Origin: an uncultured Actinomycetota bacterium
GTDB taxonomy: Bacteria > Actinomycetota > Geothermincolia > Geothermincolales > RBG-13-55-18
Direction: 5' to 3'
DNA length: 64,000 nt
NCBI GenBank assembly: GCA_964510515.1
Contig: CAZEAU010000010.1
Location: forward strand, 9,586 to 73,585
Every line of letters begins with the position of its first letter. Within the stretch, counting starts at the first letter, position 1. The translations under genes were made by a program, and so were the position numbers. Positions 9,325 to 44,355 of this stretch are shown piece after piece. The notes below the pieces were generated by a model, which saw nothing but the letters and a program-made list of their open reading frames with translations, searched no databases and was not told the DNA's origin.

Positions 9325-10506
<1,182 letters not shown>

Positions 10507-11554: not shown

Positions 11555-11579
11555 GTCCTGTTCCTCACTTACTCAACAA

Positions 11580-11615: not shown

Positions 11616-11641
11616 GTCAATGCCTTTCCAGCGCCTGCCGC

Positions 11642-22192: not shown

Positions 22193-23485
22193 TCATTTCA
22201 TTGCGGTCGGCTTCTTCGCCGGCTTCGCGGCCGGCTTCTTGGCCTTCTTCGCGGCCGCCCCGGCCTTCGCCGCGGGCTTCCTCCCGCCAAGCGACCCCGC
22301 CGCCTTCTTCGCCGCCGACCCCGCCGCCTTCTTCGCGCGCTTCGGCTTCGCCTCCTTCTCCTCCAGCAGGCTACTGGCGGGCATGCCGCACACCTGCTTG
22401 CCGTCCCTGCCCTCGGGGCAGTGCTCGATGAGGAAGCGCGACACGGCGGGGGCCAGCTCCTTCTGAGAGCGGGAGCTGACATAGATGCCTATATGCCCGC
22501 CCGGAAAGCTGTACAGCGTCTTGTCCTCGCTGCCCACCAGGTCGTTTAAGGGTATGGAGGAGGCGGGCGGCACCAGGTGGTCCTCGGTGGCATAGATATT
22601 GAGCAGGGGCATGGTGATGTTCGCGAGGTCCACGCGCCGCTCCCCGATCATCAGCTCCCCTTTCACCAGCTTGTTCTCCTGGTAGAGGTCCTTGAGGAAC
22701 TTGCGATAAGCCTCGCCGGCCTGCGCCGGGCTGTCGAATATCCACTTCTCCATGCGCACGAAATTGGCCACCGTGGCCGGATCGTCCAGGTTGTCCATGA
22801 GGCCCACGTACTTATCCACCATGAGCTGGAAGGGCTTGAGCATGAGGAAACCCACGTTCATGAACTCGCCCGGGATGATGCCCATGGTGTCCACCATGTT
22901 GTCGATGTCCATGTGCTGGCTCCACACGTTGAGCAAGCCGTCCGTGGTCTGGAAATCCACCGGGGCGACCATGGTGATGAGGTTGCGTATCTTCTCCGGG
23001 TAGAGGGCGGAATAGATGATGCTGAAGGTCCCGCCCTGGCATACGCCGAGCAGGTTGATCTGTTCGCACCCGCTGCGCTCGCGCACGAAATCGACGCAGC
23101 CGTCGAGGTAGACGTCGATATAGTCCTCCATGGTGACGTAGCGGTCACCGTGGTCGGGATACCCCCAGTCGATGATATAGATGTCCAGCCCCTGGCCGAG
23201 CAGGTTGCGGATGAGGCTGCGGTCCGACTGCAGGTCCATCATGTACTGCCGGTTGACCAGGGCGTAGCAGATGAGGATGGGGGTGGGGCAGGCAAGAGCC
23301 TCGCCCGGGAGGTAGTGGTAGAGCTTCATCTTGTCCTCTTCGAAGACCAGCTCCTTGGGGGTCGGCTCCACCTCGACGTCGCTGATGGTGGTGAGTATCT
23401 CGGTGCCCTTGACCAGCTTGCGGTTTATGTCCTCCAGCTCCTGCACGAAGAAGCCGGGGTCCATGAATTCTCTCAGCATGCTCAT
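22193..23485 (-). CDS. phaC: class III poly(3-hydroxyalkanoate) synthase PhaC with a ~75-aa Lys/Ala/Pro-rich C-terminal tail
   Basis: Very close to Allochromatium-type PhaC (ICYALVNRQYMMDLQSDRS...DWGYPD...lipase box GVCQGG...MEKWIFDSPAQAGE...FPGGHIGIYVS). Starts at MSMLREF with a GGAGGAGGG RBS. The tail EKEAKPKRAKKAAGSAAKKAAGSLGGRKPAAKAGAAAKKAKKPAAKPAKKPTAMK is absent from canonical PhaC. Confidence 0.85.
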   Translation of the reverse strand: MSMLREFMDPGFFVQELEDINRKLVKGTEILTTISDVEVEPTPKELVFEEDKMKLYHYLPGEALACPTPILICYALVNRQYMMDLQSDRSLIRNLLGQGLDIYIIDWGYPDHGDRYVTMEDYIDVYLDGCVDFVRERSGCEQINLLGVCQGGTFSIIYSALYPEKIRNLITMVAPVDFQTTDGLLNVWSQHMDIDNMVDTMGIIPGEFMNVGFLMLKPFQLMVDKYVGLMDNLDDPATVANFVRMEKWIFDSPAQAGEAYRKFLKDLYQENKLVKGELMIGERRVDLANITMPLLNIYATEDHLVPPASSIPLNDLVGSEDKTLYSFPGGHIGIYVSSRSQKELAPAVSRFLIEHCPEGRDGKQVCGMPASSLLEEKEAKPKRAKKAAGSAAKKAAGSLGGRKPAAKAGAAAKKAKKPAAKPAKKPTAMK

Positions 23486-24600
23486 CCCTCCTCCCCCGCT
23501 CCCGTGAGCTCCTTGACCTCCGCCTTCAGCGCGCGCACATCGCGCTTCAGGCGGTCCACCGCCTTGTAGAGGTGGTCCATCTCCGAGCGGTTGGGAAAGG
23601 GCAGCTCCTTGGTGGCTTCCTCCACGTAGGCCTGGAAGTCGCGCCGGAACTGCATGCCCTTGTCCACGAGCTGTCCCTGCAGGCGGGAGAACTCCTCGGT
23701 ACGGAAGAGATCGATGTACAGCTCCTCGCTCGTCTCCCACCACAGGCGGTAGAGGTCGCGGAAGGACATGGGCTCCGCCGTGCCCTCCGCCTGCAGTGAG
23801 CCCAGTTTCCGCTGCAACACCTCGAATGACCTGGCGCCCGCCCCCTGCAGCGCGGCGTAGAACTCCGAGAGGACGATGTTGAACTCCGCGAGCGAGTCCA
23901 CGGTATAGCGCAGCTTCTCCGCCGCCTCACGGTAATAACCCATGGCCGGGGCGCGCAGCAGGCGGCCGAAGCTCTCCTCGTAGGCCTTCTTCCAGGCCCC
24001 GTAGGCCTCCACCGTGCCCTCGGGGGAGAGCTTCTCCATGCTCATGGCGCGGTCCACCATACGGCGTCCGTATTCGTACCAGGGCGACCACAGGTGCACG
24101 AGCAGCCCGGAGGCGAGGAGGGGGATCTCGCCGTCGTAGAGCTCGGCTATCCACTGCAGCTGGGGGGGCAGCGCGGGCGCGAACACCTTCTGCACGATCT
24201 CCCGGTACTGCCCCGACCACTTCTCCAGCACCTCTTTGACGGCGTTGAAATCGTACTCCCCGCCCTCGCCGGCGGCCTTGCGGTAGGCCTCGAACATCTC
24301 CACCCACATGGCATGGAGTCGCGCATACACGTCCGCGGCCTGAAACATCTTGGCGTACGCGTCCGGGCCGATGCCGCCCGCGGGCGGGGTGAACCTCGCC
24401 GTCATCTCCTGCACGGAATCCATCCACCTGCGGTAGAGCTCGCTGGCGTCGGGCTCCGGCCTGCCGTCCGGCCTCTCCCCTCCCTGGCCCCACCCTCCGG
24501 CCATACGCGTCCAGGCGTCCATCCATCCCTTGAACATCTCCGCCTGGGCTTCCTGCCACTTCTTCCACACATCCGAGTGGCTATCGGTCCTCTCCGGCAT
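23482..24600 (-). CDS. phaE: class III PHA synthase subunit PhaE
   Basis: 372 aa, Trp-rich. Conserved blocks versus A. vinosum PhaE (LRAPAMGYYREAAEKL..., ...FRTEEFSRLQGQLV..., ...FPNRSEMDHLYKAVDRLKRDVRALKAEVKEL). Its stop overlaps the phaC start (ATGA). Confidence 0.8.
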   Translation of the reverse strand: MPERTDSHSDVWKKWQEAQAEMFKGWMDAWTRMAGGWGQGGERPDGRPEPDASELYRRWMDSVQEMTARFTPPAGGIGPDAYAKMFQAADVYARLHAMWVEMFEAYRKAAGEGGEYDFNAVKEVLEKWSGQYREIVQKVFAPALPPQLQWIAELYDGEIPLLASGLLVHLWSPWYEYGRRMVDRAMSMEKLSPEGTVEAYGAWKKAYEESFGRLLRAPAMGYYREAAEKLRYTVDSLAEFNIVLSEFYAALQGAGARSFEVLQRKLGSLQAEGTAEPMSFRDLYRLWWETSEELYIDLFRTEEFSRLQGQLVDKGMQFRRDFQAYVEEATKELPFPNRSEMDHLYKAVDRLKRDVRALKAEVKELTGAGEEG

Positions 24601-24621
24601 GGGTCATCTCCTTCTACGCGC

Positions 24622-24891
24622 CTACTCCTTCGCCAGCAGCTCCTCCATCTTGCGCAACCCCTCCTCGAGGTTGCGGCGGAACTCCTCGCGTCCCTTGCGC
24701 ATGTTCTCCAGCCACTCCTGCAGGACCTTCTCTCCCTCCTTCTGGAGATCTCCGCCCTGGTCCAGCAGCGTCTTCCACAGTTTCTCCGTCTGCTCCTGCA
24801 CCGAATTCATGGCATCAAAGGACATGAGCATACCGGAGCGCATGCCCTCCAGGACCGTCTTCTGCATCGTCTTCGCATCCATCTCCCTCAC
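24622..24891 (-). CDS. phasin-like small coiled-coil protein (PHA granule-associated / regulator candidate)
   Basis: 89 aa, highly charged alpha-helical (EKLWKTLLDQGGDLQKEGEKVLQEWLENMRKGREEFRRNLEEGLRKMEELLAKE), 21 nt upstream of phaE. GTG start with G-rich RBS. Confidence 0.5.
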   Translation of the reverse strand: MREMDAKTMQKTVLEGMRSGMLMSFDAMNSVQEQTEKLWKTLLDQGGDLQKEGEKVLQEWLENMRKGREEFRRNLEEGLRKMEELLAKE

Positions 24892-25131
24892 CCCTTTCCC
24901 CGATCGAAGCCTGTTTTACTCTATGATTCCTTTCCGGGCCGGCCCGTAAACATCTTCGCTGGGCCCGTGCAGACGCATGCGCGCCCGCCCATCAGCATGC
25001 ATCGGCTCGGCACCCCTCCCCCTTCAACCCTCTCCCCCGCCGCCGCGCACGGGAGCGCATGCGCCGCGCCCGCGGTGTATAATCTTGACATCACCCCGTC
25101 GGCTTGGCACGGCTCGAACAGGAGGGAACGC

Positions 25132-26133
25132 ATGAACGGAGAAAACCTCTACGAGAAGCTGTCGGAACGCATACTCACCAAGGGGAGCAGGTTCGTGCCG
25201 GACCTCTTCCGCATGGTCGCCGACGAGGAGGAGGCGCGCATCATGCTCGCCACGCCCGGCACGGCGGAGGAGCTGGCCGCCAGGCTCGATTGCGCCGTGG
25301 GGGAGGTGGAGGAGAAGCTCGCCACGCTGTACCGCAAGGGGCTCATCTTCAAATCGGACAAGCCCCAGGGCACCCTGTACCGCATGGTGCGCGACATCAC
25401 CCAGTTCCACGACGCCACCATCCTCTGGGAGGGCGCAAGCCGGGAATACCTCGACCTCTGGAAGCGACAGACCCGGGAGGAGCTGCCCGCGTATATCAAC
25501 ATGGTGAGCATGATCGCCCCCAAGCCCTTCACCCGGGTGGTGCCCGTGAACCAGCCGGTGGAGGCGCGCCAGAGCATACTCGCCTTCGAGGACGTCGAGC
25601 GCATGCTGCGCGATGCGGGCAGGCTCGCGGTGGCCAGATGCACCTGCCGCCTCGTGGACGGTGCCTGCGGGAAGCCCCTCGAGGTATGCCTGCAGCTGGG
25701 CAGGGGGGCCGACTATGCCATCGACCGCGGCAGCGGCCGCGAGGTGACCTTTGAGGAAGCCCTGGATATCATCCACATGGCGGAGGAAGCGGGGCTGGTC
25801 CACGTGGCCATGAACAAGGCCTACGGCAGCAATATCATCTGCAACTGCTGCGGGGACTGCTGCATAGCCTTCGGGCTGCCCATACCCTCCAGCGCCATCG
25901 TCGACCCCAGCCGCTTCCTGGCGGTGGTGGACGGGGAGTCCTGCAACGGCTGCGCCACCTGCGTCGAGCGCTGCCTCTTCGAGGCCATCGCCATGGAGGA
26001 GCTCGGCGGGGGAGAGGTGGCTATGATCGCCGCGGAGAGATGCATGGGCTGCGGGCTCTGCCAGGTCACCTGCCCCGAGGAAGCCATCTCCATGCGGGCG
26101 GTACGCGAGGAGTCCTTCGTCCCCGACCTCTGA
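25132..26133 (+). CDS. 4Fe-4S ferredoxin-domain protein with additional Cys-rich motifs
   Basis: Starts MNGENLYEKL with an AGGAGGGA RBS. Two CX2CX2CX3C(P) motifs (CNGCATCVERC, CMGCGLCQVTCP), plus CTCRLVDGAC and CNCCGDCC clusters. The upstream half of track ORF 24094..26133 is antisense to phaE. Confidence 0.6.
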   Translation: MNGENLYEKLSERILTKGSRFVPDLFRMVADEEEARIMLATPGTAEELAARLDCAVGEVEEKLATLYRKGLIFKSDKPQGTLYRMVRDITQFHDATILWEGASREYLDLWKRQTREELPAYINMVSMIAPKPFTRVVPVNQPVEARQSILAFEDVERMLRDAGRLAVARCTCRLVDGACGKPLEVCLQLGRGADYAIDRGSGREVTFEEALDIIHMAEEAGLVHVAMNKAYGSNIICNCCGDCCIAFGLPIPSSAIVDPSRFLAVVDGESCNGCATCVERCLFEAIAMEELGGGEVAMIAAERCMGCGLCQVTCPEEAISMRAVREESFVPDL

Positions 26134-26277
26134 GCTCTTTGCGGCCCGGCCCTGTGGGTGCGGAGCGCGGGCTTGCGGCGGATATGCTGCCCGCGAAGGT
26201 CGCGTCAGGGCGAGGCGGCCGAGCCCGGGCAGCGGTCCATGTGCGGGCGCGGCACCCGGGCCTCCCCCCCTTCCCGC

Positions 26278-26383
26278 GGCGGCTCCCATGCGCGCCCCTC
26301 GCGTAAGCGGAACCTCCACTTCATCTCCTTTACGAGGCGGGCGAAATGGCGGCTCCCATGCGCGCCCCTCGCGTAAGCGGAAC
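26278..26383. repeat. perfect 36-bp direct repeat (2 copies, 34-bp spacer): GGCGGCTCCCATGCGCGCCCCTCGCGTAAGCGGAAC
   Basis: Copies at 26278..26313 and 26348..26383 are identical. They lie in the convergent intergenic region between the ferredoxin-like gene and the MaoC gene. Confidence 0.6.
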
Positions 26384-26411
26384 GGGCCCGCTGCAATGGG
26401 CGGACTTACGC

Positions 26412-26447
26412 ATAATTAAAAGAGGGCGGGGATATCCCCGCCCTCTT
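26412..26447 (-). terminator. Rho-independent terminator (perfect 13-bp stem AAGAGGGCGGGGA/TCCCCGCCCTCTT) after the MaoC/SDR operon; may act bidirectionally
   Basis: The hairpin at 26419..26447 is followed on the minus strand by TTTTAATTAT. It sits between convergent genes. Confidence 0.55.
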
Positions 26448-26461
26448 AACCCGTCGTTCGC

Positions 26462-27310
26462 CTATACGTTCAGCCACACCGCAGCATTGGTGATGCAGTA
26501 TTCCTCCGGGCGCTCCTTGGTGGTGCAGCGGAAGACGACCTTGTCGTCCGCCTCCTTCCACATCTGGGTGACGATGGTGTCTCCGGGCCACACCGGGCGG
26601 CTGAAACGGACCTTGATGGCCTTGAACTTGGCCGGGTCGTTGTCGCAGTACTGGCGCAGCACGGCGCGCCCCGCGAGTCCGAAGGTGCACAGCCCGTGCA
26701 GTATGGGACGGTCGAACCCGGCCATGGCCGAGAAGTTCGGGTCCACGTGCAGCGGGTTGTAGTCGCCGGAGAGGCGATAGATCATGGCCTGGGTGATGAG
26801 GGTGGGCGTCTCCACCACCGCGTCGGGGTCGCGCTCCGGGGGCTCGTTGCCCGGATCGGGTCCGCGCTCGCCGCCGAACCCTCCCTCGCCGCGGATGAAG
26901 CTGGAGAACTTGTTGTAGAAGACCACGTCCCCGGCCTCGTCGACGGTGTCGGCGTCCAGCTCGATCACGGCGCCCTTGGTCTTGTCCCACACCGCGGCTA
27001 TTTTCGGCTTGCTCGTGAGCTTGCCACTCGTGGGGATGGGCTTGCGAACCTCCAGGTACTGCTCGCCGTGAACCAGCATGACCAGGTTGATGTCCACCCC
27101 CTCCACCGCCACCAGGCCCATGAGGGCCGGGAAGGGCGGGACGACCCCGAAGGTGGGCAGGGCCATCAGGCCGTTCTCGTACACGAACTTGAGCTCGTCC
27201 GCTTCGTAGCCGGCTCCGATCCCCAGGGCGTAGAGGATAACGTCCCGGGTGGTGAAGTCGAAGTCGAGCGGCGGCAGCTCTTTTCCTACCACGGACAGAT
27301 CGATGGGCAT
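26462..27310 (-). CDS. MaoC-like (R)-specific enoyl-CoA hydratase (MFE-2 hydratase-2 domain; PhaJ-like)
   Basis: Double hot-dog fold, 282 aa, with the hydratase-2 motif region (YRLSGDYNPLHVDPNFSAMAGFDRPILHGLCTFG). Confidence 0.8.
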   Translation of the reverse strand: MPIDLSVVGKELPPLDFDFTTRDVILYALGIGAGYEADELKFVYENGLMALPTFGVVPPFPALMGLVAVEGVDINLVMLVHGEQYLEVRKPIPTSGKLTSKPKIAAVWDKTKGAVIELDADTVDEAGDVVFYNKFSSFIRGEGGFGGERGPDPGNEPPERDPDAVVETPTLITQAMIYRLSGDYNPLHVDPNFSAMAGFDRPILHGLCTFGLAGRAVLRQYCDNDPAKFKAIKVRFSRPVWPGDTIVTQMWKEADDKVVFRCTTKERPEEYCITNAAVWLNV

Positions 27311-27348
27311 CTTATCACCCCTTCATTCCGTAATGACGCTTGCGGCCA

Positions 27349-28263
27349 TCAGGTAAGGTTCATCTTGCCCAGGATGAGACCGGCGTGCTCGGTGGCGCCT
27401 CCCACCGTCTGGGCTCCCTCCAGGCTGGTTATCTTGTCGATGTTCTCGTCGATCATCTCCAGGGTGATGGGCTCCTTCTTGACGTCGAAGAGCACCCCCG
27501 GCCCCTCCATGAAGGCGGTGCGGCTGAAATAGCCTCCGCCGGCCACGAAGATGCACCCGGAGAAGCTGTTCTTCTCGGAGCAGGCCCAGCCGACGATGGG
27601 GGATACGTACTCAGGCTTGAGCACCTCCAGCATCTGCGGGGGCATCACCGTCGCGGTCATGCGCGTCCCGGCGACGGGGAGGATGGCGTTGGCCAGGATG
27701 TTATACTTGGCGCCCTCCTGCTTGAGGACGTGCATGAGTCCGACGATGCCCATCTTGGCCGCCCCGTAGTTGGCCTGCCCGAAGTTGCCGTATACGCCGG
27801 CCCCCGAGGTAGCGGCGATGATGCGGCCGTAGCTGTTCTCGCGCATGTGGGGGAAAGCGGCCTTGCAGCAGAAGAAGGTGCCGTTGAGGTGCACGGAGAT
27901 GACCTTCTCGTAGTCCTCCATCTCCATCTTGATGAAGCTCTTGTCGCGCAGGATGCCGGCATTGCTGATGAGGATGTCGATCTTGCCGAAAGAGTCCAGG
28001 GCCGTCTGGATGATGTTCGAGGCCCCTTCCCAGTCGGCGACGCTGTCGAAGTTGGGAACCGCCTCTCCCCCGGCGTCCTTGATCTCCTTACAGACCTCCT
28101 CCGCCGCGGTGTGCCCCGAGCCGGTGCCGTCGAAGGCGCCCCCCAGGTCGTTGACCACGACCTTGGCCCCGCGGCTGGCAAGGAGCAAGGCGTATTCCCT
28201 ACCCAGGCCGCCGCCGGCCCCGGTCACTACTGCGACGCGGTCATCGAATCTTACCTCCGCCAT
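27349..28263 (-). CDS. SDR-family (3R)-hydroxyacyl-CoA dehydrogenase (MFE-2 / HSD17B4 dehydrogenase-domain homologue)
   Basis: MAEVRFDDRVAVVTGAGGGLGREYALLLASRGAKVVVNDLGG...NAGILRD...YGRIIAATSGAGVYGNFGQANYGAAK aligns closely with the N-terminal dehydrogenase domain of peroxisomal multifunctional enzyme 2. AAGGAGAAGG RBS. Confidence 0.8.
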   Translation of the reverse strand: MAEVRFDDRVAVVTGAGGGLGREYALLLASRGAKVVVNDLGGAFDGTGSGHTAAEEVCKEIKDAGGEAVPNFDSVADWEGASNIIQTALDSFGKIDILISNAGILRDKSFIKMEMEDYEKVISVHLNGTFFCCKAAFPHMRENSYGRIIAATSGAGVYGNFGQANYGAAKMGIVGLMHVLKQEGAKYNILANAILPVAGTRMTATVMPPQMLEVLKPEYVSPIVGWACSEKNSFSGCIFVAGGGYFSRTAFMEGPGVLFDVKKEPITLEMIDENIDKITSLEGAQTVGGATEHAGLILGKMNLT

Positions 28264-28778
28264 AGACCTTCTCCTTTCCTTCCTCGGGGGTGCGCCCCCC
28301 ACGCTGTTTCCTGTCTCGCCTGCACCCAGCCCGCCATCGCGAGCAAGGCCGACGCTGAGTTGATGGCCCTGTTAGAACACGATACCCGCCGCCCGGGTGG
28401 CCCTATCATTATATACCCGATCCTACAACCCGATCCCGCCTGGCTTGCTTCCGCCGACGCCGCAAGCTCCCGCCCGGCTTTTCGATATTACCATATCGCT
28501 GGGGCAATATCATACCCGCTGCCTCCGCGGGCGCGCCGACCCGCGTTCACCGCGGGCGCCCCCCGCCGCATGATCGATACCCGGCCCGCCGAAACGGCGC
28601 CTGAGCCCTGCCTCCGGGGCAGATCCGCCTTGCGCGCTGCGACCATATCCGGGCCGGCCGCGGCGGCAGCGGGCCTGTCTTGCAGCGTCCTTATGCTTCA
28701 TAATGTCTGGGGCGCCTGCCTTCCCCGCCGGGAGAGGGTGGGCGCGGCAGACATCCGCCGCACACCCGGGAGGGAGAT

Positions 28779-30233
28779 ATGCCGGCCATGAAGGTCGTGG
28801 TCATCGGGTCCGGCCCGGGAGGGTCCGCGTGCGCGGCCCTCCTGGCGCATGCGGGCCACGAGGTCACGCTGCTGGAGAGAAACCCGTTTGCGGGAGGGAA
28901 ATGCTCCTCCCTGGCCCGCGGCGGCTACGCGCTCGACGGCGGCGTGCACATGTTCGGTCGCGGGCCGCGGGGCCCCTTTGGCGACATCGCCCGCATCCTC
29001 GGGGAGGGCCCGGAATGGTGCGCGACCACTCCCTCCTTCACCCTCAGCCTGTCGGGAAAGGGCCGGCTGGAGATGGCCTCCTCCATCCTCCATCCTCTCA
29101 ACGCGTTCAGCTTCCTCAAGGGGCGCCTCAGGGGATGGCAGAACATGGGCTGGGCGGCCACGGCCGCCCACGCCATGCGCTCTTTTGGGCCCGCCGCCCT
29201 GCTCTCCCTGCACAGGAAGCTCAACCACCGCCGCTATCCCCTCTACGGCGAGCTCCAGGACGTGAGCGTGCGGGATTTCATGCTGCGGGTCTCCGGCGCC
29301 GACGACTTTTTGCGCGCCTTCCACGCCCAGGCCATGCTGACCATGGCGCTCCCCTGGCACCGCGCCAGCATGGGCGAATTCGCCTATATCCTCGGCACCA
29401 CCATGCACGCATCCTATCTCTGCTATCCGCGCGGGGGGTGCGGAGCCATACCCGCATCCTTTTTGCGCGCGCTGGCCGGCAGGGGGGGCGTTGTCCGCCT
29501 TGGCTGCGAGGCGGCGAGGATAGAGGTCGAGGGGGGAGGGGTGCGGGGCGTCATCACCTGCGGGGGGGAGCACCTCCCCGCCGACGTGGTGGTCTCCAAT
29601 GCCGGGCTGCGCCGCAGCATCGAACTTGCCGGCCGGGACGCCTTTCCGCGCGATTACCTGGAGAGGGCGGACGCCATGCGCGACTCCGAGGCCTTCGTCG
29701 CCCTGAGGTTCACCCTGGAGCGCAAGCTCTCCTCCCTGCGCACCCCCTGCCTGCTGCACATGCCCTCCCTGCCCCCGCAGAGCATGTTCGACTACCTCGA
29801 GGACGGCAGCGTGCCCGAAGACCTCTTCCTGTTCGTCACCGCCCCCGGCAAATGGGACCCCGCCCTGGTCCCGCCGGGAGGGGACAGCCTCATCGTCGGG
29901 GTCCCCGCGCCCAGCCGGCTCGACCGCGGGGCGCAGTGCGCGGCGCTTCTGCACAGGGCGCAGGATATCGCCCTGGACCTCTTCCCCGAGATCGCCTCCT
30001 CGGCCTCGGGGGTGGAGAGAGTCCTCGGGGCCGACATCTCCGCTCTCAGCGGCAGGAACTCGGGCGACTGTATCGGCCTGGCCCAGGAGGTTGGACAGAG
30101 CGGCCGCCTGCGCCCCGCGGCGGACACTCCGCTGCGCGGACTGTACCTGGTGGGCGCGGATGCCGGCGGCCGTGGCATCGGCACCGAGATGGCTGCGGAC
30201 AGCGCGCTGCGCCTTTACCACCTGCTGAAATGA
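28779..30233 (+). CDS. FAD/NAD(P)-dependent oxidoreductase, phytoene-desaturase (CrtI)-like family
   Basis: Rossmann start VVVIGSGPGGSACAALLAHAGHEVTLLERNPFAGGKCSS and length 484 aa are typical of CrtI/retinol-saturase-like flavoproteins. GGGAGGGAG RBS. Confidence 0.7.
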   Translation: MPAMKVVVIGSGPGGSACAALLAHAGHEVTLLERNPFAGGKCSSLARGGYALDGGVHMFGRGPRGPFGDIARILGEGPEWCATTPSFTLSLSGKGRLEMASSILHPLNAFSFLKGRLRGWQNMGWAATAAHAMRSFGPAALLSLHRKLNHRRYPLYGELQDVSVRDFMLRVSGADDFLRAFHAQAMLTMALPWHRASMGEFAYILGTTMHASYLCYPRGGCGAIPASFLRALAGRGGVVRLGCEAARIEVEGGGVRGVITCGGEHLPADVVVSNAGLRRSIELAGRDAFPRDYLERADAMRDSEAFVALRFTLERKLSSLRTPCLLHMPSLPPQSMFDYLEDGSVPEDLFLFVTAPGKWDPALVPPGGDSLIVGVPAPSRLDRGAQCAALLHRAQDIALDLFPEIASSASGVERVLGADISALSGRNSGDCIGLAQEVGQSGRLRPAADTPLRGLYLVGADAGGRGIGTEMAADSALRLYHLLK

Positions 30234-30387
30234 GCCGATCCGGGCCCCCCTCCGCCCTTCGCGGGGACGCGGCCGCAGCCCGCCCGCTGACCGCGCCCCC
30301 CGCGCCCCCTTGCCCACCGCGCGGGGATGAACATAGAATCATACCCAGTGGCTGGCAAGGTCGGATTCTCTACGGAGGTATGCCTGC

Positions 30388-31110
30388 ATGGGTCTCTTCG
30401 ATCAGCCCCTGGCAGAGATCAGGGCCCGCATAGAGGGCTGGTACCGCGATGGGACGGCGAGGGAACTGCCCTTCACCCCGGTGCTGCCCCACGCGGGTGA
30501 TGCCCAGGTCATATTGAGCGAGGATACCGGCCTGGAGTTGGGGAACCCGGGCACGGCCTCGCGCTCACTGCTGCTTTGGGATGCGGAGGAAACCCTGCAT
30601 GACGGGCGCATCACCCTGGTGGGGCCCGATTTCACGCAGGCTCCCTCCTCCAGCCTGCCCTTCGCACAGGTGATCATAGTGAGCGGGGATTTCAGCGACG
30701 AGTACGACTGCTACCGCGACCTGCGTGATGCCATCTACAACGTGCGGCTGCGGGGCTTCATGACCCGCGTCTTTCCGGGGCGGCAGTCCATATGGTGCCG
30801 CATAAGCAGGGAGGCGCTGGCCGGCGGCTTCAGCGCTCAGCTCCTGGGCAGCGCCCTCATGCAGTCCCTCAAGGGACTCGACTTCGTGCGCGGCGTCGAG
30901 GTGCTCTTCGTCACCGCGGGCAAGGAAGAGGTGGACGGGCTCGCGAGCGCGGCGGACAAGGTCATGGACATCGTCGAAGCCCTGATCAAGATGTACGAGG
31001 AGATGAACTTCGACTGCGAGGAGTGCGAATACGTGGAAGTCTGTGACGAGGTGGTGGAATTGAGGCGTATACGCGAAAAGCTCCAGGCGAAGCGGGAAGG
31101 CGGCGGCTGA
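30388..31110 (+). CDS. hypothetical protein with C-terminal CxxCx5C motif, translationally coupled to the CooC-like ATPase
   Basis: 240 aa, no recognised family. C-terminus ...MNFDCEECEYVEVCDEVVEL. The stop lies 3 nt before the next start. Confidence 0.5.
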   Translation: MGLFDQPLAEIRARIEGWYRDGTARELPFTPVLPHAGDAQVILSEDTGLELGNPGTASRSLLLWDAEETLHDGRITLVGPDFTQAPSSSLPFAQVIIVSGDFSDEYDCYRDLRDAIYNVRLRGFMTRVFPGRQSIWCRISREALAGGFSAQLLGSALMQSLKGLDFVRGVEVLFVTAGKEEVDGLASAADKVMDIVEALIKMYEEMNFDCEECEYVEVCDEVVELRRIREKLQAKREGGG

Positions 31111-31113
31111 GCC

Positions 31114-31890
31114 ATGTCCGACGGGGATCGCGGCGGCGCGGGCAAGGTCATCGCCGTATGCGGCAAGGGCGGGGTCGGCAAGACGACCGTCTCCGCGCTG
31201 CTATCGCGCCTCCTGCGCGAGGAGCGGACCTCCCGGGCGCTGGTGGTCGACGCCGACCCGGCCATAGGGCTTGGTTTGGCCCTGAACCGTTTTCCCGAGC
31301 GCACGGTCAACGACGTCCGCAAGGAGATCATCACCGCGGTACGCGAGCGCTCCACCGACAGCCTGGACCTCGCCGCCTCCGTCGATTACAAGATGATGGA
31401 GATAGTCATGGACAGCGGGAACCTCGGCTTCCTCTCCGTGGGACGCCCCGAGGAGGAGGGTTGTTACTGCCAGCTCAACACCCTGCTCAGGGAGGCCATA
31501 GAGACCCTCTCCTCCCACTTCGACATCACCCTTATCGACGCGGAAGCCGGGGTGGAACAGGTGAACCGCCGCGTCATGCGCTCGGTTTCCCACCTGCTGC
31601 TGGTCAGCGATACCACCGTGAAAGCGCTGCGCGTCGCCGAGTCCATCGCCAAGGTGGCCGACGAGGCGGTCGATTACAGGCGTATCGGGCTCATCGTCAA
31701 CCGCGCCCGCGGCGGGGATGAGGCACGGCGCCTCGCCGCACAGGGGGAGCTGCCCTTGCTGGGCTGGATCCCGGAAGACGATACGGTGAGGGAATACGAC
31801 TCCGAGGCCCGGGGCTTTCTGGACATTCCCGCCTGCCCCGCCCTGGAAGCGGTGAGGGCGCAGATTCTCGAGGGCGGTTTCCTCTCCTAG
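31114..31890 (+). CDS. CooC/AcsF-type MinD-family P-loop ATPase (deviant Walker A, CxC metal motif)
   Basis: VIAVCGKGGVGKTT deviant Walker A and a conserved GCYC motif as in CO-dehydrogenase nickel-insertion ATPase CooC. 258 aa. Confidence 0.7.
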   Translation: MSDGDRGGAGKVIAVCGKGGVGKTTVSALLSRLLREERTSRALVVDADPAIGLGLALNRFPERTVNDVRKEIITAVRERSTDSLDLAASVDYKMMEIVMDSGNLGFLSVGRPEEEGCYCQLNTLLREAIETLSSHFDITLIDAEAGVEQVNRRVMRSVSHLLLVSDTTVKALRVAESIAKVADEAVDYRRIGLIVNRARGGDEARRLAAQGELPLLGWIPEDDTVREYDSEARGFLDIPACPALEAVRAQILEGGFLS

Positions 31891-31913
31891 GTGCCCGCGG
31901 CGGCCCGGGCGCG

Positions 31914-33749
31914 CTATCCCCCCCCGAGCCCCTCCAGCTCCATCTCGCGCAGGATCCTCTTGTTCACCTTGAAGACCTCGGTGAGCGGCATCTCGTCCAT
32001 GAAGATGATCGCCTTGGGCAGCGCGTACTTGGCCACCCTTCCCCGCAAATAGGTAAGGTAGTCCTCCTCGCTCACCCTCCCCTTGTATTCCTCCTTGAGC
32101 TGGATGAAGATCTTGATGCGCTCGCTGCCCTCCCTCTCGGGGTCGGGAACGCCGATGGCGGCGGCTACCTCCGTCGCCTCGTGGTCGTAGAGGATATCAT
32201 CGACCTCCCTGGTATAGACCTTGTAGCCGGAGACGATGACCATGTCCTTGGTGCGGTCCACGATGGAGAAATACCCGTTCTCGTCCATCTTGACCACGTC
32301 GCCGGTATGCACGAAGCCCTCGTCGTCAAGCCCCTTGCCCGGCTCCGGCCAGTACCCCAGCATGCGCTGGGGGCCGGAGAGCAGCATCTCCCCGAGCTTG
32401 CCCTCGGCTATCATCTCCCCAAACGGGACCGGAGCCCCCGAGTCCACCTCCACCACCTTGACCACGGTGTCCGGCACGGGGATGCCGATGGTGGCGCGCT
32501 TCTCCTCGCCCTTGATGCCGGAGCGCTTGCGGTTGTAGTCGGAGATCATGCCGAGGATGGTCAAGAACACCTTGCCGTAGAGCTTCGGCCCCAGCAGGCG
32601 CGCCTGCGCGTTCATGAAGGCCCGGCTTAAGGGGTTGAAGAGCAGCGCGTTCATGACCGGGACCATTTTGCGCCCGCCCATGGCGCGTATATTGGCGGAG
32701 ACGTTGAAGTGCGTGACCGGCGAGAGCTCGGAGAGGCCGTAGCCCTCGGACACGAACGTCTTGCTCTCCTGCTCGAACTTCTCCTGCACGTTGGGAGGGA
32801 GGGCCGCGGACCCCGAGATGCCGATGACCCGCGTGGCCTTGATGTCCTCCTCGAGCAGCTTCATGAACTGGGTGGGCACGCCGAACTGCAGCACCGGGTT
32901 GTGCTCGTGTATCATGCGCAGCATCCCCTTGGTATCGCGGGGGTCGGTGACGACGAGCAGCTTGTAGGCGCCGCTGATCATGGTGTGCATGATGCAGTGC
33001 CCGTAGCTGTGGAAGAAGGGCAGGCCGATGAGCACGGAGGTGTTGCCCTCGAGTATCTTGACGATGGGGCCGAAGACGGCGGGGTTCTGCAGGGCGTTGG
33101 CCACGATGTTGCGGTGGGTGAGCATGCACCCCTTGGGGAGCCCGGTGGTGCCCCCGGTGAAGAGCAGGGTCTCCAGGTCGCGGGAGGGGTCGAGGTCGAT
33201 GCGCGGGGCCCCGGGCTCGGCCTGGGCGATGATGTCGCTCAACCACATGGCGTCGGGCAATTCCTCGTGCCGGGGCGGCCGGTCGGAATAGTCCTCCACC
33301 CTGGTGACGATGATGTTCGGCTCGGCCATGTATTCGCGCAGCGATTCCGCCAGCGGAAGGTTCTCCTCCAGGCAGATGAGCGCCTCGGGCGTGCATTCCC
33401 GAAACTTGTGGGAAAGGGTGTCCAGGGGCTCGAGGAAGCTGCACGGCACGTGCACCGCGCCGGCCTTGGATATCCCGGCGTCAGCGATGATGAACTGCAC
33501 CGAGGTGGGCAGCAGGGTGGCCACCCTGCTGCCCTTCGTCACCCCCATGGAAGCCAGGGCGTTGGCCAGCCTTTCGGCATGGTCCTTGACCTCGGGATAG
33601 GAGATCTCCATGCCCAGTTGCACGCAGCCCATGCGCGGTTTCTCCTTCGCCGCCCGGTCCAGAAGGTAATGGCTGGGCTGGTGCGGATAAGGCTGTAGAG
33701 AACGCGGGATTCCGACGATCTTGTACTCCTTGAACCAGGGATAATCCAT
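31914..33749 (-). CDS. AMP-dependent acyl-CoA synthetase / long-chain fatty-acid--CoA ligase
   Basis: AMP-binding signature FTGGTTGLPKGCMLTHRNI, 611 aa from MDYPWFKEY. The first 35 codons of track ORF 31914..33854 look spurious. Confidence 0.8.
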   Translation of the reverse strand: MDYPWFKEYKIVGIPRSLQPYPHQPSHYLLDRAAKEKPRMGCVQLGMEISYPEVKDHAERLANALASMGVTKGSRVATLLPTSVQFIIADAGISKAGAVHVPCSFLEPLDTLSHKFRECTPEALICLEENLPLAESLREYMAEPNIIVTRVEDYSDRPPRHEELPDAMWLSDIIAQAEPGAPRIDLDPSRDLETLLFTGGTTGLPKGCMLTHRNIVANALQNPAVFGPIVKILEGNTSVLIGLPFFHSYGHCIMHTMISGAYKLLVVTDPRDTKGMLRMIHEHNPVLQFGVPTQFMKLLEEDIKATRVIGISGSAALPPNVQEKFEQESKTFVSEGYGLSELSPVTHFNVSANIRAMGGRKMVPVMNALLFNPLSRAFMNAQARLLGPKLYGKVFLTILGMISDYNRKRSGIKGEEKRATIGIPVPDTVVKVVEVDSGAPVPFGEMIAEGKLGEMLLSGPQRMLGYWPEPGKGLDDEGFVHTGDVVKMDENGYFSIVDRTKDMVIVSGYKVYTREVDDILYDHEATEVAAAIGVPDPEREGSERIKIFIQLKEEYKGRVSEEDYLTYLRGRVAKYALPKAIIFMDEMPLTEVFKVNKRILREMELEGLGGG

Positions 33750-34044
33750 GGACCCAACCCCCTTCTGCCGCTGGCCTTGGACCGATTTCGCCGAGACATA
33801 TATTATACCGCAATTGCATGTCTCGGATATAAGCGCAACGCGAAAATGGAGCACCGCAGACGCTCCGGCGCGGCGCCCTGCCGGTATGCGGCGGGCTTGG
33901 CCTGCCGCCTGGGAGCGGTGCCCTCAAGCCGCGAGCGGCGCGCAAGCGTCACGCCTTCCCGCCGCGGCCATGCGGGCAATATGGCGCAAGGGGGGAAGGG
34001 GCCGGGGTCGCCCGGCCCCTGCAGATATCCTGGCCCGGGGCGCC

Positions 34045-34527
34045 CTAGAGGACGCCGCCGATCCTCCCGATCTGGATGTGCACCTCTCCGTCCTCGTCGC
34101 TCACGGTCACGGTGACGATGGAGCCGTCGTCCATCTCCTTCATCCAGGTGGCCTCCCTGGCGGTCTCTTCCACGATGAGCGGGTCTCCCATCTTGCCATT
34201 GTAGAAGTCGACCACCTTGTCGAAGCCGTGCGTGGTGATAAACACCGCTCCCGCGGTCGTGAACTCGCCCTCGGGGCCGCTTCCCGACACCATGGCTCCG
34301 CTTCCCGGCACGAGTTCGGCGCCGGGGTAGATCGGGGCTCCCAGCTCTTTCTCGCTGGGGACCTTTTCGGAGTAATTGTAGCTGACGTCACCCTCCTCGG
34401 TCTTGTAGGTGACGGTGCCGCCGTCTTCCTCCACCTTCACCTCGCCAAGCGGGGTCTCAACCGTCTCTTTGTCGCCGCACCCGGCGCTCACGGCCAGGGC
34501 GAACGCCATGCTCAGCAGCAGCATCAT
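34045..34527 (-). CDS. hypothetical lipoprotein
   Basis: Signal peptide plus lipobox MMLLLSMAFALAVSAGC, then an acidic Thr/Glu-rich mature region. No family recognised. Confidence 0.45.
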   Translation of the reverse strand: MMLLLSMAFALAVSAGCGDKETVETPLGEVKVEEDGGTVTYKTEEGDVSYNYSEKVPSEKELGAPIYPGAELVPGSGAMVSGSGPEGEFTTAGAVFITTHGFDKVVDFYNGKMGDPLIVEETAREATWMKEMDDGSIVTVTVSDEDGEVHIQIGRIGGVL

Positions 34528-34621
34528 GACCAGTGCTTTCCTCAACTCTCTCCCTCCCTTCCTCGTTCCGGCTGCGTCTTGCGGGTCCATCCCGCACACA
34601 ACTTTCTCCCGTTACGCGATT

Positions 34622-34896
34622 ATTATACCCACGCGTGCGAGGTTGCAGCAGCCAAGCCCGCTCCCCCTGCTTCAGCTCCGCTATTATGCCCGCGCGTGCG
34701 GGGATGCAGCGCGGAGGAGCTCTTCGAGTGAGAGGCCCTGATGCCTTTATACCCACGCGTGCGGGGGTACAGCGTCGACCAGGCCCCAGAATGGCGGCCC
34801 TGGTGAATTATACCCACGCGGGCGGGGGTGCAGCTACGCGCAGGCAGTCTTGGATGCGAGGCAGGATATTATGCCCGCGCGGGCGGGGGTGCAGCG
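34622..34896 (+). CRISPR. orphan, degenerate type I-E-like CRISPR array (5 repeats of 28-29 nt, 4 spacers of 32-35 nt, period 61-63)
   Basis: Repeats at 34622, 34683, 34746, 34807 and 34868 follow ATTAT(A/G)CCC(A/G)CGCG(T/G)GCGGGG(A/G)T(G/A)CAGC. The consensus resembles the I-E repeat CCCCACGCGTGTGGGGATGGACCG. The leftmost copy is most degenerate. There are no cas genes in the window. Confidence 0.7.
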
Positions 34897-35052
34897 GTCC
34901 GGGAGCGCCGCTTCCACGCTTCCGGGCGCTCTTTCGCTTCCTTCAGGCCCAACCTCACGATTGAGCCCTTGCGCTTCGCCGCTCCCTCGCCTCCGCCGGG
35001 TTGGACAGGGGATTCTCACCCCCGGGCCGCCCGGCATGCCCGGCACGGCAAG

Positions 35053-35077
35053 AAAAAAACAGGGCCTTGCGGCCCTG
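35053..35077 (-). terminator. Rho-independent terminator downstream of tRNA-Ala
   Basis: Minus strand reads CAGGGCCGCAAGGCCCTG followed by TTTTTTT. Confidence 0.6.
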
Positions 35078-35084
35078 TTTATAT

Positions 35085-35161
35085 TGGTGGAGCCGATGGG
35101 ACTCGAACCCACGACCTCTACCATGCCAAGGTAGCGCTCTCCCAAGCTGAGCTACGGCCCC
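35085..35161 (-). tRNA. tRNA-Ala (anticodon GGC), CCA encoded
   Basis: The reverse complement GGGGCCGTAGCTCAGCTTGGGAGAGCGCTACCTTGGCATGGTAGAGGTCGTGGGTTCGAGTCCCATCGGCTCCACCA folds as a cloverleaf. G3:U70 identity pair; anticodon loop TTGGCAT. Confidence 0.9.
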
Positions 35162-35230
35162 TCGAAGACACCTTAAGCAGTATAAGGACTGGCGAATACA
35201 GCGTCAACGGCACGGAAGGCCGCGCGGCGC

Positions 35231-35671: not shown

Positions 35672-35768
35672 GCATAGACTATCATATCTCGCCCCCACCC
35701 TCCTGCTCCGCGCTCATCAGGCCAGGTCCCGGCCGGCGACGATGATTATCTGCGCTGCTCCGCGCTCA

Positions 35769-44247: not shown

Positions 44248-44319
44248 CTTGTCTCCCCCCTCTTGTCCCCGAGGTCTGGCGGCAAGCCCTCCGCATCGTC
44301 CGCCCGCTTCGTGTGCCTG

Positions 44320-44355
44320 AAAACAAAACGCCCTTTCCACCGCGGTGGAAAGGGC
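44320..44355 (-). terminator. Rho-independent terminator / leader hairpin ~85 nt upstream of the CAP-repeat gene start
   Basis: Perfect 12-bp inverted repeat GCCCTTTCCACC-GC-GGTGGAAAGGGC followed on the minus strand by GTTTTGTTTT. Confidence 0.5.

Follow-up and report, generated by a model that had tools for sequence, protein, structure and literature searches.

The window, i.e. the whole 64-kb stretch of DNA that was analysed, carries between positions 22193 and 34600 a block of PHA and acyl-CoA genes. The true reading frames were picked by third-position GC content (GC3), and every gene of the original prediction was found where it had been placed. The block is organized in five separate transcription units of alternating orientation, each with its own terminator and promoter-like sites. 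It fills the gap between two housekeeping strings, obg-proB-proA-nadD-rsfS-tRNA-Ala and leuS-comEC-holA. The annotated flanks contain argH/G/R/D/J/C, holA, comEC and leuS on one side, and rsfS, nadD, proA, proB, obg, L21, RNase E/G, ftsZ and the mur genes on the other. The claim that everything outside the block is core housekeeping holds for these annotated flanks, but fails for the 4-kb stretch from leuS to phaC, which encodes a ThiI-like protein, an MFS protein and two hypothetical proteins.

The pha operon lies on the reverse strand and comprises the genes of a small phasin-like protein (24622-24882, 86 residues) and of the two subunits of a class III PHA synthase, phaE (23482-24600, 372 residues) and phaC (22193-23485, 430 residues). 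The phasin-like protein matches the Phasin family PF05597 weakly and under the cut-off (E 2.7e-4), and its gene is kept at the same position in the relatives L004, L005, L006 and L173 with 61-77% identity. PhaE, the second subunit, scores 136.9 bits against PF09712 and 107 bits, under the cut-off, against TIGR01834; its identity to any outgroup is about 26% at most. The catalytic subunit PhaC scores 512 bits against TIGR01836, the class III PhaC model (cut-off 365). The PhaC box reads G-V-C149-Q-G-G (GVCQGG) and both D302 and H331 are found; we take Cys149, Asp302 and His331 to be the positions of the Allochromatium vinosum enzyme. The PhaC of Ca. Solincola MAGs are 77-87% identical to that of the window, and the nearest PhaC outside the Solincola-like clade, from Bacillota MAGs, is 65% identical. 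The locus resembles class III loci of the A. vinosum type in its two-subunit PhaE/PhaC synthase, in the translational coupling of the two genes (the phaE stop and the phaC start overlap by 4 bp) and in the small phasin-like gene upstream. It differs from them in its host, an uncultured and presumably anaerobic actinobacterium, and in the Ala/Lys-rich C-terminal tail of PhaC (72 residues, including 20 Ala and 18 Lys). Many class III loci also carry an SDR directly after phaC, whereas the window has no adjacent thiolase or PhaB-type reductase.

A forward-strand gene (25132-26133), which diverges from the pha operon and converges on maoC, encodes a 333-residue protein with a winged helix, a Cys-rich region and two [4Fe-4S] motifs (Fer4 families). 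Sixteen of its cysteines are invariant in an alignment of 43 sequences. The AF2 model has a pLDDT of 81, and the Foldseek matches are at domain level only, the N-terminus being MarR/ArsR/TrmB-like and the C-terminus resembling an HdrA-like ferredoxin domain. The gene adjoins maoC in L004, L006, L088, L096 and L173, and its product is a possible redox-responsive regulator.

The next two genes, both on the reverse strand, form one operon that encodes an SDR (27349-28263, 304 residues) and MaoC (26462-27310, 282 residues); a terminator-like hairpin lies 3' of maoC on the same strand (26420-26447, a 12-bp stem with 9 GC pairs and then a T-rich tail). MaoC is a two-domain (R)-specific enoyl-CoA hydratase-2, with 140 bits against PF22622, 113 bits against PF01575 and the hydratase-2 motif YRLSGDYNPLHVDPNFS. 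Its best solved structure is the human MFE-2 hydratase (1s9c, 1.9e-79). The SDR, a putative (3R)-hydroxyacyl-CoA dehydrogenase of the MFE-2/HSD17B4 type, contains the motifs TGxxxGxG, NAG and YxxxK, and its best solved structures are MFE-2 dehydrogenases (2et6, 5.5e-136; 1zbq, 5.6e-88; 1gz6, 7e-88). The earlier reading of the pair as a split MFE-2 is upheld. Split counterparts are known in actinobacteria, e.g. Hsd4A/Hsd4B of Mycobacterium. MaoC would interconvert 2-enoyl-CoA and (R)-3-hydroxyacyl-CoA, and the SDR would interconvert (R)-3-hydroxyacyl-CoA and 3-ketoacyl-CoA. The likeness to the peroxisomal MFE-2 (HSD17B4) extends to both halves. On the other hand, the window enzymes are separate polypeptides from a two-gene operon, lack an SCP2 domain and are placed among PHA and acyl-CoA genes; their stereospecificity and chain length are putative.

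On the forward strand follow a FAD protein of the CrtI/amine-oxidase family (28779-30233, 484 residues, PF01593) and a pair of genes that is the most unusual and still uncharacterised, nickel-enzyme-like part of the block. The flavoprotein scores 112 bits against TIGR02734, under its cut-off of 238, and has orthologues in L088, L164, L173, L176 and L179. The pair starts with a stand-alone acetyl-CoA synthase (ACS) middle-domain protein (CdhC-like, 30388-31110, 240 residues), and 3 bp after it starts the gene of a CooC/AcsF-type P-loop ATPase (31114-31890, 258 residues). The earlier call of a CooC-like ATPase stands, its best solved structure being CooC1 (3kje, 9.8e-13, with the CYC (CxC) motif aligned), and the partner then described as unknown now matches the Pfam family CdhC (PF03598, 42.5 bits). 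The partner aligns with AcsB residues ~328-460, its AF2 model has a pLDDT of 90, and Foldseek against the PDB returns ACS chains only (23 matches, TM ~0.6). Its family comprises 167 representative clusters (E<=1e-30), and in all of the best 150 of these 167 the length is ~100-310 residues. The pair thus resembles the ACS middle domain (AcsB/CdhC) in the predicted fold of the partner, and the CooC/AcsF nickel-insertion ATPases in a deviant Walker A (GKGGVGKT) and a CxC metal motif (C117-Y-C119). It differs from those systems in that both CODH and the A-cluster domain are lacking, and in that the partner has its own cysteine set, C210-x2-C213-x5-C219, which is invariant, plus C137, present in at least 90% of the sequences. 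The genes associated with the pair across lineages are those of HGD-D/BcrAD_BadFG, not those of the Wood-Ljungdahl pathway. In relatives it usually lies beside ATP-dependent radical-enzyme genes (HGD-D and BcrAD), and in five of five distant lineages it stands at the end of an operon with three HGD-D genes and two BcrAD genes. These radical-enzyme genes are absent from the window, where the pair appears to be the remainder of a larger operon of the HGD-D/BcrAD type.

The last two genes of the block are on the reverse strand and encode a long acyl-CoA synthetase (FadD, 31914-33749, 611 residues, PF00501 and PF13193) and a lipoprotein (34045-34530). FadD matches PF00501 in two stretches (228 bits) and has an internal insertion. 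The lipoprotein has a signal peptide and the lipobox VSAGC and matched no Pfam family; orthologues with 42-64% identity occupy the same place in relatives. FadD adjoins the lipoprotein gene in all clade relatives and is the anchor gene of the locus. Beyond it, both boundary features of the original prediction were recovered. A degenerate orphan CRISPR-like mini-array (34622-34895, reverse strand) has five repeats of 28 nt, separated by four spacers of 33-35 nt, with a repeat spacing of 61/63/61/61 nt. The repeats are partly palindromic, each has 1-3 mismatches from the consensus (27-nt core), and their form, GCTGCACCCCCGC..GCGGG.ATAAT, is presumably type I-E-like. The window showed no cas genes, the array had no match among the Rfam CRISPR families, and IMG/VR yielded no protospacers for three of its spacers. 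The tRNA-Ala(GGC) gene (35085-35161, reverse strand) faces the block with its 3' end, and has a promoter-like site at 35207-35179 and a terminator at 35080-35057.

The gene order is widely shared among relatives, all of them MAGs or metagenome contigs in which some mis-binning or mis-assembly is possible. L173 carries the whole block in the same order and orientation, with identities of 81% for PhaC, 76% for the Fe-S protein, 88% for MaoC, 83% for the SDR, 70% for the CrtI-like protein, 71% for the CdhC-like protein, 76% for the CooC-like ATPase and 76% for FadD. The junction rsfS-tRNA-Ala(GGC)-lipoprotein-FadD-CooC-like-CdhC-like is shared with L084, L088, L090/91 and L176, and L099 and L114 have it as far as FadD, where their contigs end. 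The opposite side, from PhaC to leuS, is kept in L005 and L006 (Ca. Solincola quzhuomuensis and sediminis). Loci of Ca. Solincola relatives with the same order have 54-67% GC; that of L006 has 53.6%, against ~68% in the window. Identities are 52-80% in the flanks and 58-91% in the block for L088, and 68-80% and 61-83%, respectively, for L084, so that divergence of the flank proteins keeps pace with that of the block proteins in the same relatives. In composition, GC3 is 0.894 in the block vs 0.882 in the flanks (p=0.20), and codon bias gives p=0.06. The total GC of the block is ~3.6 points below the flanks, a deficit due to codon positions 1 and 2, i.e. to amino-acid composition.

These data bear on how the block came to its place. 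The original prediction described an accessory island inserted at tRNA-Ala. In its recent form, this genome or very close relatives would have gained the 12-kb block horizontally, with integration at the tRNA 3' end and the CRISPR remnant included. As in tRNA-targeted integrative islands, one edge is marked by a tRNA gene, here with the degenerate array, and the gene content downstream varies at deep levels; the lower total GC and the restriction of the array to the window, all relatives' loci lacking it, point the same way. However, the junction and order are kept in at least eight independent relatives with proteins 50-90% identical, including all close relatives open to examination, and close relatives do not differ in having or lacking the block. 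GC3 and codon bias equal those of the flanks, block and flank proteins co-diverge, no integrase or transposase occurs among the block genes or the annotated flanking genes, and no tRNA-derived direct (att) repeat was found. Because the order is conserved and silent-site composition does not differ, the test named in the prediction itself, the island reading is not supported; a recent gain in this genome is refuted by synteny and GC3 and is extremely improbable. The array, an orphan peculiar to this lineage, sits in the spacer between the tRNA and lipoprotein genes and is not an island scar. An older event, ameliorated since, is a different matter: the common ancestor of the Solincola-like clade would have acquired the block, wholly or in part (e.g. 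phaEC or the acyl-CoA genes), on the downstream side of tRNA-Ala(GGC), with vertical descent and gain or loss of modules thereafter. The tRNA follows rsfS in L084, L088, L090/91, L099, L114 and L176, and also in the more distant Actinomycetota L174 and L175 (NadD 60-62%), where it lies 1-3 kb downstream and is followed by unrelated genes. Presence of the block at this place therefore characterises the Solincola-like clade. The older event also agrees with the CdhC-like/CooC-like pair lying elsewhere in one of these two distant genomes (L168), inside an HGD-D/BcrAD operon, with the outgroup identities of PhaC and PhaE, and with the few genes that separate rsfS from leuS-comEC-holA in many Actinomycetota. 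Against it, no mobility genes or att sites are left, ordinary rearrangement downstream of the tRNA accounts for the same data, and the case depends on two distant genomes with leuS out of reach in both; we regard it as rather unlikely. The block is probably a vertically inherited, clade-typical neighbourhood of a Ca. Solincola-like actinobacterium (Geothermincolaceae) and not a recently acquired island. This vertical inheritance applies within the Solincola-like clade, whose ancestor may have assembled or acquired the block.

Three modules or more make up the neighbourhood, and relatives gain and lose them independently. The pha operon would be one, its synthase polymerising short (R)-3-hydroxyacyl-CoA; lipoprotein-FadD together with SDR-MaoC beside the winged-helix/Fe-S protein would be the stable backbone; and the CrtI-like flavoprotein followed by the CdhC-like/CooC-like pair would be the third. 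A cassette of HGD-D, BcrAD, AIM24, PrcB and ACAD genes is variably present. This mosaic bears on the fatty-acid-to-PHA channelling proposed earlier, since the genes could be unrelated neighbours: FadD and SDR-MaoC, with the relatives' ACAD, HGD-D/BcrAD and CdhC-like/CooC-like genes, would degrade carboxylic acids anaerobically by (R)-specific beta-oxidation, and pha would merely be adjacent, with monomers from enzymes encoded elsewhere. In L096 other genes replace the pha trio while FadD-AIM24-PrcB-SDR-MaoC-FeS is kept. Between the CrtI-like and CdhC-like genes, L164 has ACAD and two HGD-D genes, and L089, L091 and L092 have two BcrAD and two HGD-D genes; the CdhC-like operon of L168 is linked to ACAD, thiolases and a thioesterase. 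The position of SDR-MaoC-FeS-FadD beside ACAD and radical-enzyme genes in relatives points to a role in catabolism that has nothing to do with PHA, and the separate transcription units agree with it. No acyl-CoA dehydrogenase, thiolase or depolymerase gene was found within the 64-kb window, and none of the 77 other best PhaC loci pairs PhaC with MaoC or an MFE-2-type SDR. On the other hand, FeS-MaoC-SDR is the direct neighbour of pha in four or more deep lineages (the window, L173, L004 and L006), the canonical PhaB-type reductase that lies immediately downstream of phaC in many other class III loci is missing here, and the (R)-3-hydroxyacyl-CoA made or used by the MFE-2 pair is the exact substrate of PhaC. 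We regard mere adjacency as less likely than not; the proposed channelling is plausible.

Comparable arrangements are known. In Aeromonas caviae, phaP-phaC-phaJ are clustered (as cited in PMC4823750), and in Haloferax mediterranei a PHA-granule-associated MaoC-type R-hydratase, PhaJ1, links PHA mobilisation to beta-oxidation (PMC4823750). The window shares with these clusters a MaoC-type (R)-specific hydratase encoded beside PHA synthase genes, and with it a path that joins enoyl-CoA to (R)-3-hydroxyacyl-CoA and could serve PHA synthesis or mobilisation. It differs in that maoC forms an operon with an HSD17B4-type dehydrogenase, transcribed apart from pha, in that a relative lacking pha (L096) still has the hydratase, and in that the hydratase is a two-domain eukaryote-like hydratase-2 (PF22622 and PF01575), whereas the PhaJ of A. 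caviae is a single hot-dog fold. Judged by gene adjacency only, the (R)-specific enzymes could plausibly be coupled to PHA. In that case SDR-MaoC would connect PHA with acyl-CoA metabolism in the way that PhaB and PhaJ do: with acyl-CoA supplied by FadD, the pair would turn 3-ketoacyl-CoA or enoyl-CoA into (R)-3-hydroxyacyl-CoA for PhaEC, and would draw the latter off when PHA is mobilised.

The interval considered here runs from leuS (15742-18219, minus strand) on its left to rsfS (35231-35590, minus strand) on its right. The GC content of the window is approximately 68%, because of which spurious ORFs are plentiful, and the real reading frames were picked by third-position GC (GC3). Past leuS lie the genes of a ThiI-like protein, an MFS transporter and two hypothetical proteins (18.4-22.1 kb), followed by a block of five transcription units. 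The genes of this block listed in the original prediction are all present, with family scores, motifs and best solved structures in agreement, and the annotated flanks are housekeeping genes, as it had stated. The kinds of protein encoded (class III PHA synthase, split MFE-2, CooC-type ATPase) are already known.

In a comparison with one genome per species, the best matches of PhaC are an "uncultured actinobacterium" MAG (87%), Ca. Solincola quzhuomuensis (86%) and Ca. Solincola sediminis (78%), followed by a Clostridiales MAG (65%). Ca. Solincola is placed in the Actinomycetota, class Ca. Geothermincolia, family Ca. Geothermincolaceae. The Solincola-like clade is uncultured and presumably anaerobic; none of the papers retrieved on Geothermincolia deals with PHA. 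Identical proteins are carried by the Logan assemblies SRR8925752 and SRR17676810-20.

The block had been taken for an acquired island inserted at a tRNA gene. For this genome a recent island is not supported, and synteny, co-divergence, composition and the search for hallmark genes all speak against it. A Pfam and NCBIfam scan of all block genes and 30 flanking genes, covering the window except for a few gaps poor in genes and the right end from 55.2 to 64 kb with its seven predicted genes, contained no integrase, recombinase or transposase. There is no tRNA-derived direct repeat, as no 12-mer of the tRNA gene recurs anywhere in the window, and the recurring 12-mers of 35040-35180 belong only to the terminator stem, with matches at 5.5 kb and 42.8 kb. 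Silent sites and codon usage are not deviant: GC3 is 0.894 in the block versus 0.882 in the flanks (p=0.20), and the codon bias (Karlin B) is 0.26 versus 0.22, which is not significant (p=0.06). Only GC1 (0.63 versus 0.70) and GC2 (0.42 versus 0.48) differ, and the total GC of the block, 3.6 points below that of the flanks, therefore reflects its amino-acid composition. Within one relative, moreover, the block proteins match those of the window about as closely as the flank proteins do (flanks 68-80% and block 61-83% in locus L084; 52-80% and 58-91% in L088).

The L-numbers denote loci fetched from other genomes and metagenome contigs, Solincola-like relatives among them. The block is found at the same site in L084, L088, L090/91, L099, L114, L173, L176, L005 and L006. 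In L173, a JGI metagenome contig with a GC content of 60%, the whole block is present with order and orientation unchanged (hyp-hyp-PhaC-PhaE-phasin-FeS-MaoC-SDR-(PrcB_C)-CrtI-(AIM24)-CdhC-like-CooC-like-FadD). The right side is read as Obg-ProB-ProA-NadD-LytR_C-RsfS-tRNA-Ala(GGC)-lipoprotein-FadD-CooC-like-CdhC-like in L084, L088, L090/91 and L176, and in the same order up to FadD, where the contigs end, in L099 and L114. The left side (phasin-PhaE-PhaC-...-hyp-ThiI-like-LeuS) is present in L005 and L006, of which L006 reaches FadD on one side and a ComEC-like gene past leuS on the other. The L006 locus has a GC content of only 53.6%, so that the gene order outlasted a large shift in base composition. 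Among the loci compared, the block is absent from the site only in L174 and L175, from more distant Actinomycetota (NadD 60-62%), where tRNA-Ala(GGC) lies within 1-3 kb after rsfS with unrelated genes around and after it. Carrying the block at this site is accordingly a derived trait that members of the Solincola-like clade share, and its acquisition, or its assembly downstream of the tRNA, would at most be an ancient event at the level of the clade. The island call was attractive but wrong and is hereby corrected. The case also shows how an island can be mimicked by a tRNA gene, the remains of a CRISPR array and a lowered total GC that stems from amino-acid composition.

The two boundary elements themselves are real. 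tRNA-Ala(GGC) (35085-35161, minus strand), with its own promoter-like site and terminator, follows a CRISPR-like array at 34622-34895, in which four spacers of 33-35 nt separate five repeats of 28 nt, with a repeat spacing of 61/63/61/61 nt. This layout agrees with that of CRISPR arrays (at least three direct repeats of 23-47 nt and unique spacers of similar length), and each repeat differs from the consensus by 1-3 mismatches, in keeping with the degenerate array of the original prediction. No cas domain occurs among the annotated genes of the window, no Rfam CRISPR-DR family matches at E<=1 within 34000-36000, and spacers S2-S4, searched as 20-21-mers, have no match in IMG/VR, a result that is uninformative by itself. 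Together with the diverged repeats, these results are consistent with an orphan remnant. The repeats are missing from the tRNA-to-lipoprotein spacers of L084, L088 and L099, from the rsfS-to-lipoprotein stretch of L135 and from every other fetched locus; the array is thus a lineage-specific orphan of the tRNA-lipoprotein spacer, found in this genome only.

Other elements were observed beyond rsfS. At 35703-35806, a 52-bp tandem duplication (98% identity, 2.0 copies) of the end of the LytR_C gene, on its 3' side, extends into the spacer before rsfS; it could be either real or an assembly artefact. A c-di-GMP-I riboswitch (44365-44454, minus strand; RF01051, 78 bits against a gathering score of 35) lies directly upstream of the gene of a secreted CAP/DUF5719 protein (42409-44340, minus strand), with a sortase gene nearby (44741-45397).

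The PHA operon comprises phaC (22193-23485), phaE (23482-24600) and a phasin-like ORF (24622-24882), all on the minus strand. PhaC scores 512 bits with the class III model TIGR01836 (cut-off 365) and retains the catalytic residues Cys149, within GVCQGG, Asp302 and His331. The adjacent PhaE is recognized by PF09712 (136.9 bits, cut-off 25.7) and remains below the cut-off of NCBIfam TIGR01834 (107 bits versus 155), and is therefore a divergent PhaE. The phasin-like ORF has weak matches (PF05597, 21.4 bits, cut-off 28.8; TIGR01837, 19.9 bits, cut-off 94.7), its position and size fit a phasin, and the gene is kept in relatives. As judged from these sequences, the class III synthase operon is shown to be catalytically intact, and the putative substrate of PhaEC is, as for a class III synthase, short-chain (R)-3-hydroxyacyl-CoA. 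PhaC also ends in a tail of 72 residues (359-430; 22193-22408) with 20 Ala and 18 Lys in AKKPAAK-like runs; L004 has part of it and L005 none, and in L006 a Ser/Pro/Glu-rich tail takes its place. The tail is similar to those of PhaF and PhaM, which are histone-H1-like and bind DNA, and might tether granules to the nucleoid. On the leuS side of the operon, the hypothetical protein at 21050-21619 (plus strand) has no Pfam family and is internally duplicated, with two similar halves of about 90 residues ending in ...LRALRELAEDP...; its gene is conserved in L005 and L006, where it adjoins the ThiI-like gene, and is found also in L096 and L173.

The maoC (26462-27310, minus strand) and SDR (27349-28263, minus strand) genes form an operon that codes for both halves of an MFE-2 with intact catalytic motifs, which bears out the split enzyme proposed earlier. 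MaoC is a two-domain hydratase-2 (PF22622 and PF01575) with the motif YRLSGDYNPLHVDPNFS, and its best solved relative is the hydratase-2 of human MFE-2 (1s9c, 1.9e-79). Among solved structures, the SDR comes closest to (3R)-hydroxyacyl-CoA dehydrogenase domains from MFE-2 (2et6, 5.5e-136; 1zbq, 5.6e-88), and its TGxxxGxG, NAG and YxxxK motifs are all present.

Next to maoC, the convergent gene at 25132-26133 (plus strand) encodes an Fe-S protein; a strong hairpin terminator (26420-26447) separates the two. In this protein a winged helix at the N-terminus is followed by a centre rich in Cys and, at the C-terminus, a 2x[4Fe-4S] domain; 16 Cys are invariant. Structure searches returned no full-length analogue, only matches to the ferredoxin domain and weak MarR/ArsR/TrmB-like matches to the winged helix, and Desulfatibacillum is among the organisms with full-length homologues, which are about 50% identical. 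That the protein may be a redox-responsive regulator is a reasonable guess.

Many class III loci have a PhaB-type reductase gene after phaC. Since none is placed there in the window, the SDR is proposed to act as 3-ketoacyl-CoA reductase as well as (R)-3-hydroxyacyl-CoA dehydrogenase, and MaoC as a PhaJ-type hydratase. The intermediate common to the MFE-2 pair, to the route through the acyl-CoA synthetase FadD (31914-33749, minus strand) and to PhaC would be (R)-3-hydroxyacyl-CoA, the substrate of PhaC, and the SDR and MaoC together could link the synthesis and mobilisation of PHA with acyl-CoA metabolism. A precedent for a MaoC-type hydratase connecting PHA and beta-oxidation is the granule-associated PhaJ1 of Haloferax mediterranei, which links PHA mobilisation to beta-oxidation (PMC4823750).

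The coupling of the MFE-2 pair to PHA is plausible and reasonable to infer, at about even odds, and several observations speak against a dedicated channel from fatty acids to PHA. The annotated genes of the window include no thiolase or acyl-CoA dehydrogenase domain, and tblastn of the whole window revealed no homologue of the acyl-CoA dehydrogenase of L164. The block is divided into five transcription units, and L096 keeps SDR-MaoC-FeS-FadD without pha. At the site between the Fe-S and response-regulator genes, L006 carries phasin-PhaE-PhaC (8553-12414), whereas L096 carries a lipoprotein and a PNP_UDP_1-like nucleosidase (6923-9533), so that the pha cassette is polymorphic, present or absent, among members of the clade. 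The pairwise identities of MaoC, SDR and FeS resolve L096, L006, L004 and the window group as four deep lineages; pha is present in three of the four, so that its loss in L096 is the parsimonious reading. In relatives, moreover, the neighbours of the SDR-MaoC-FeS-FadD genes include an acyl-CoA dehydrogenase and radical enzymes, an indication that some carboxylic acid is catabolised by this pathway.

The neighbourhood is thus modular within the Solincola-like clade, with a hot spot of gene content between the SDR gene and that of the CdhC-like protein, a stand-alone ACS middle domain. L089, L090/91 and L092 carry here two BcrAD_BadFG ATPases, two HGD-D subunits, an AIM24-like protein and a PrcB_C lipoprotein; L115 has two BcrAD genes before its contig end, L164 two HGD-D genes and an acyl-CoA dehydrogenase, L088 and L176 one BcrAD gene, and L173 and L084 AIM24 only (the L084 contig ends just past it). 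The window has only the CrtI-family flavoprotein (28779-30233, plus strand), and L006 and L096 lack the CrtI, CdhC-like and CooC-like genes altogether. No remnants of PrcB_C, AIM24, BcrAD, HGD-D or ACAD were detected in the whole window (tblastn, E<=1), and the sole remains in this interval are short conserved promoter/leader patches; the HGD-D/BcrAD genes next to the CdhC-like/CooC-like pair are lost from the window. In L173 (14167-15636) gene calling splits the CrtI-family gene into two ORFs of 119 and 367 residues; it may be frameshifted or a pseudogene, a hint that some lineages can do without the flavoprotein.

The pair consists of the CdhC-like protein of 240 residues (30388-31110, plus strand) and the CooC-like ATPase (31114-31890, plus strand); FadD and then a lipoprotein (34045-34530, minus strand) follow. 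The ATPase, whose best solved relative is CooC1 (3kje), combines a GKGGVGKT deviant Walker A with C117-Y-C119, aligned with the CYC of 3kje, and was therefore correctly called CooC-like. The CdhC-like protein corresponds only to the ACS middle domain (Moorella AcsB residues ~328-460; CdhC 15-169). In the PDB, all 23 matches to its confident model (pLDDT 90) at E<=5e-6 are ACS chains, with a TM of ~0.6 over the query and ~0.2 when normalised to the target. C210-x2-C213-x5-C219 is invariant, and C137 is found in at least 90% of sequences. The C-terminal A-cluster domain is missing, and no CODH or ACS genes occur among the neighbours of the ATPase at the loci examined; a role in a Wood-Ljungdahl ACS was rejected on these two counts. 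A paper on an isoprene reductase deals with a GltD-like enzyme accompanied by HypA/HypB and has no bearing on the pair.

The profile search with the CdhC-like protein retrieved 720 representative clusters (50% identity) at E<=1e-3 and about 170 (167) at E<=1e-30; among the matches listed, the best 150 clusters are all of ~100-310 residues. A CooC-type ATPase partners the family member in every locus examined. The ATPase is surrounded in the window by the middle-domain protein, FadD and CrtI, and in other lineages by HGD-D/BcrAD genes. Two or three HGD-D and two BcrAD_BadFG genes lie beside the pair in L089 (5800-10230), L091 (13441-17694), L092 (7880-12260), L165 (2229-7887), L168 (2378-7974), L177 (2416-8000) and L178 (2275-7993), and HGD-D without the two BcrAD_BadFG genes in L164 (7380-9904). 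These genes indicate a system of the benzoyl-CoA reductase, 2-hydroxyacyl-CoA dehydratase or double-cubane type. In all five of the more distant lineages examined (L165-167, L168, L177, L178) the pair comes last in an operon that also has three HGD-D and two BcrAD_BadFG genes, with two or three unannotated genes upstream.

The window, L173, L084 and L179 keep the pair without HGD-D/BcrAD genes. The CdhC-like gene is preceded by a promoter-like TTGCCC-18-TAGAAT site (30310-30339), the sequence of which is kept in L173 and L179 despite a different upstream gene; the pair would be transcribed from this conserved site of its own. The pair is intact in a relative of 96% identity, where the dN/dS of the CdhC-like gene, 0.48 on only 19 substitutions, is too noisy to call relaxed selection. 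It is possible, if rather doubtful, that the pair is an undescribed accessory system of ATP-dependent HGD-D/BcrAD enzymes in anaerobic Actinomycetota, either a metallocluster/nickel maturation factor or a CoA-ester-binding subunit, which here outlived the loss of the catalytic genes and was maybe recruited to FadD/CrtI/PHA acyl-CoA metabolism. To assign it a function for BCR/HAD-type enzymes, be it in the maturation of a metallocluster or in the binding of CoA esters, is speculative.

In the Solincola-like clade a class III PHA synthase is encoded next to a split MFE-2 of eukaryote-like type, which suggests a possible route with the MFE-2 dehydrogenase and hydratase in place of the usual PhaB and PhaJ. 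The small ACS-middle-domain proteins constitute a sizeable uncharacterised family that, with its CooC-type ATPase, is tightly linked to operons of ATP-dependent radical enzymes, and this link is a lead for enzymologists of benzoyl-CoA reductases, 2-hydroxyacyl-CoA dehydratases and double-cubane proteins.
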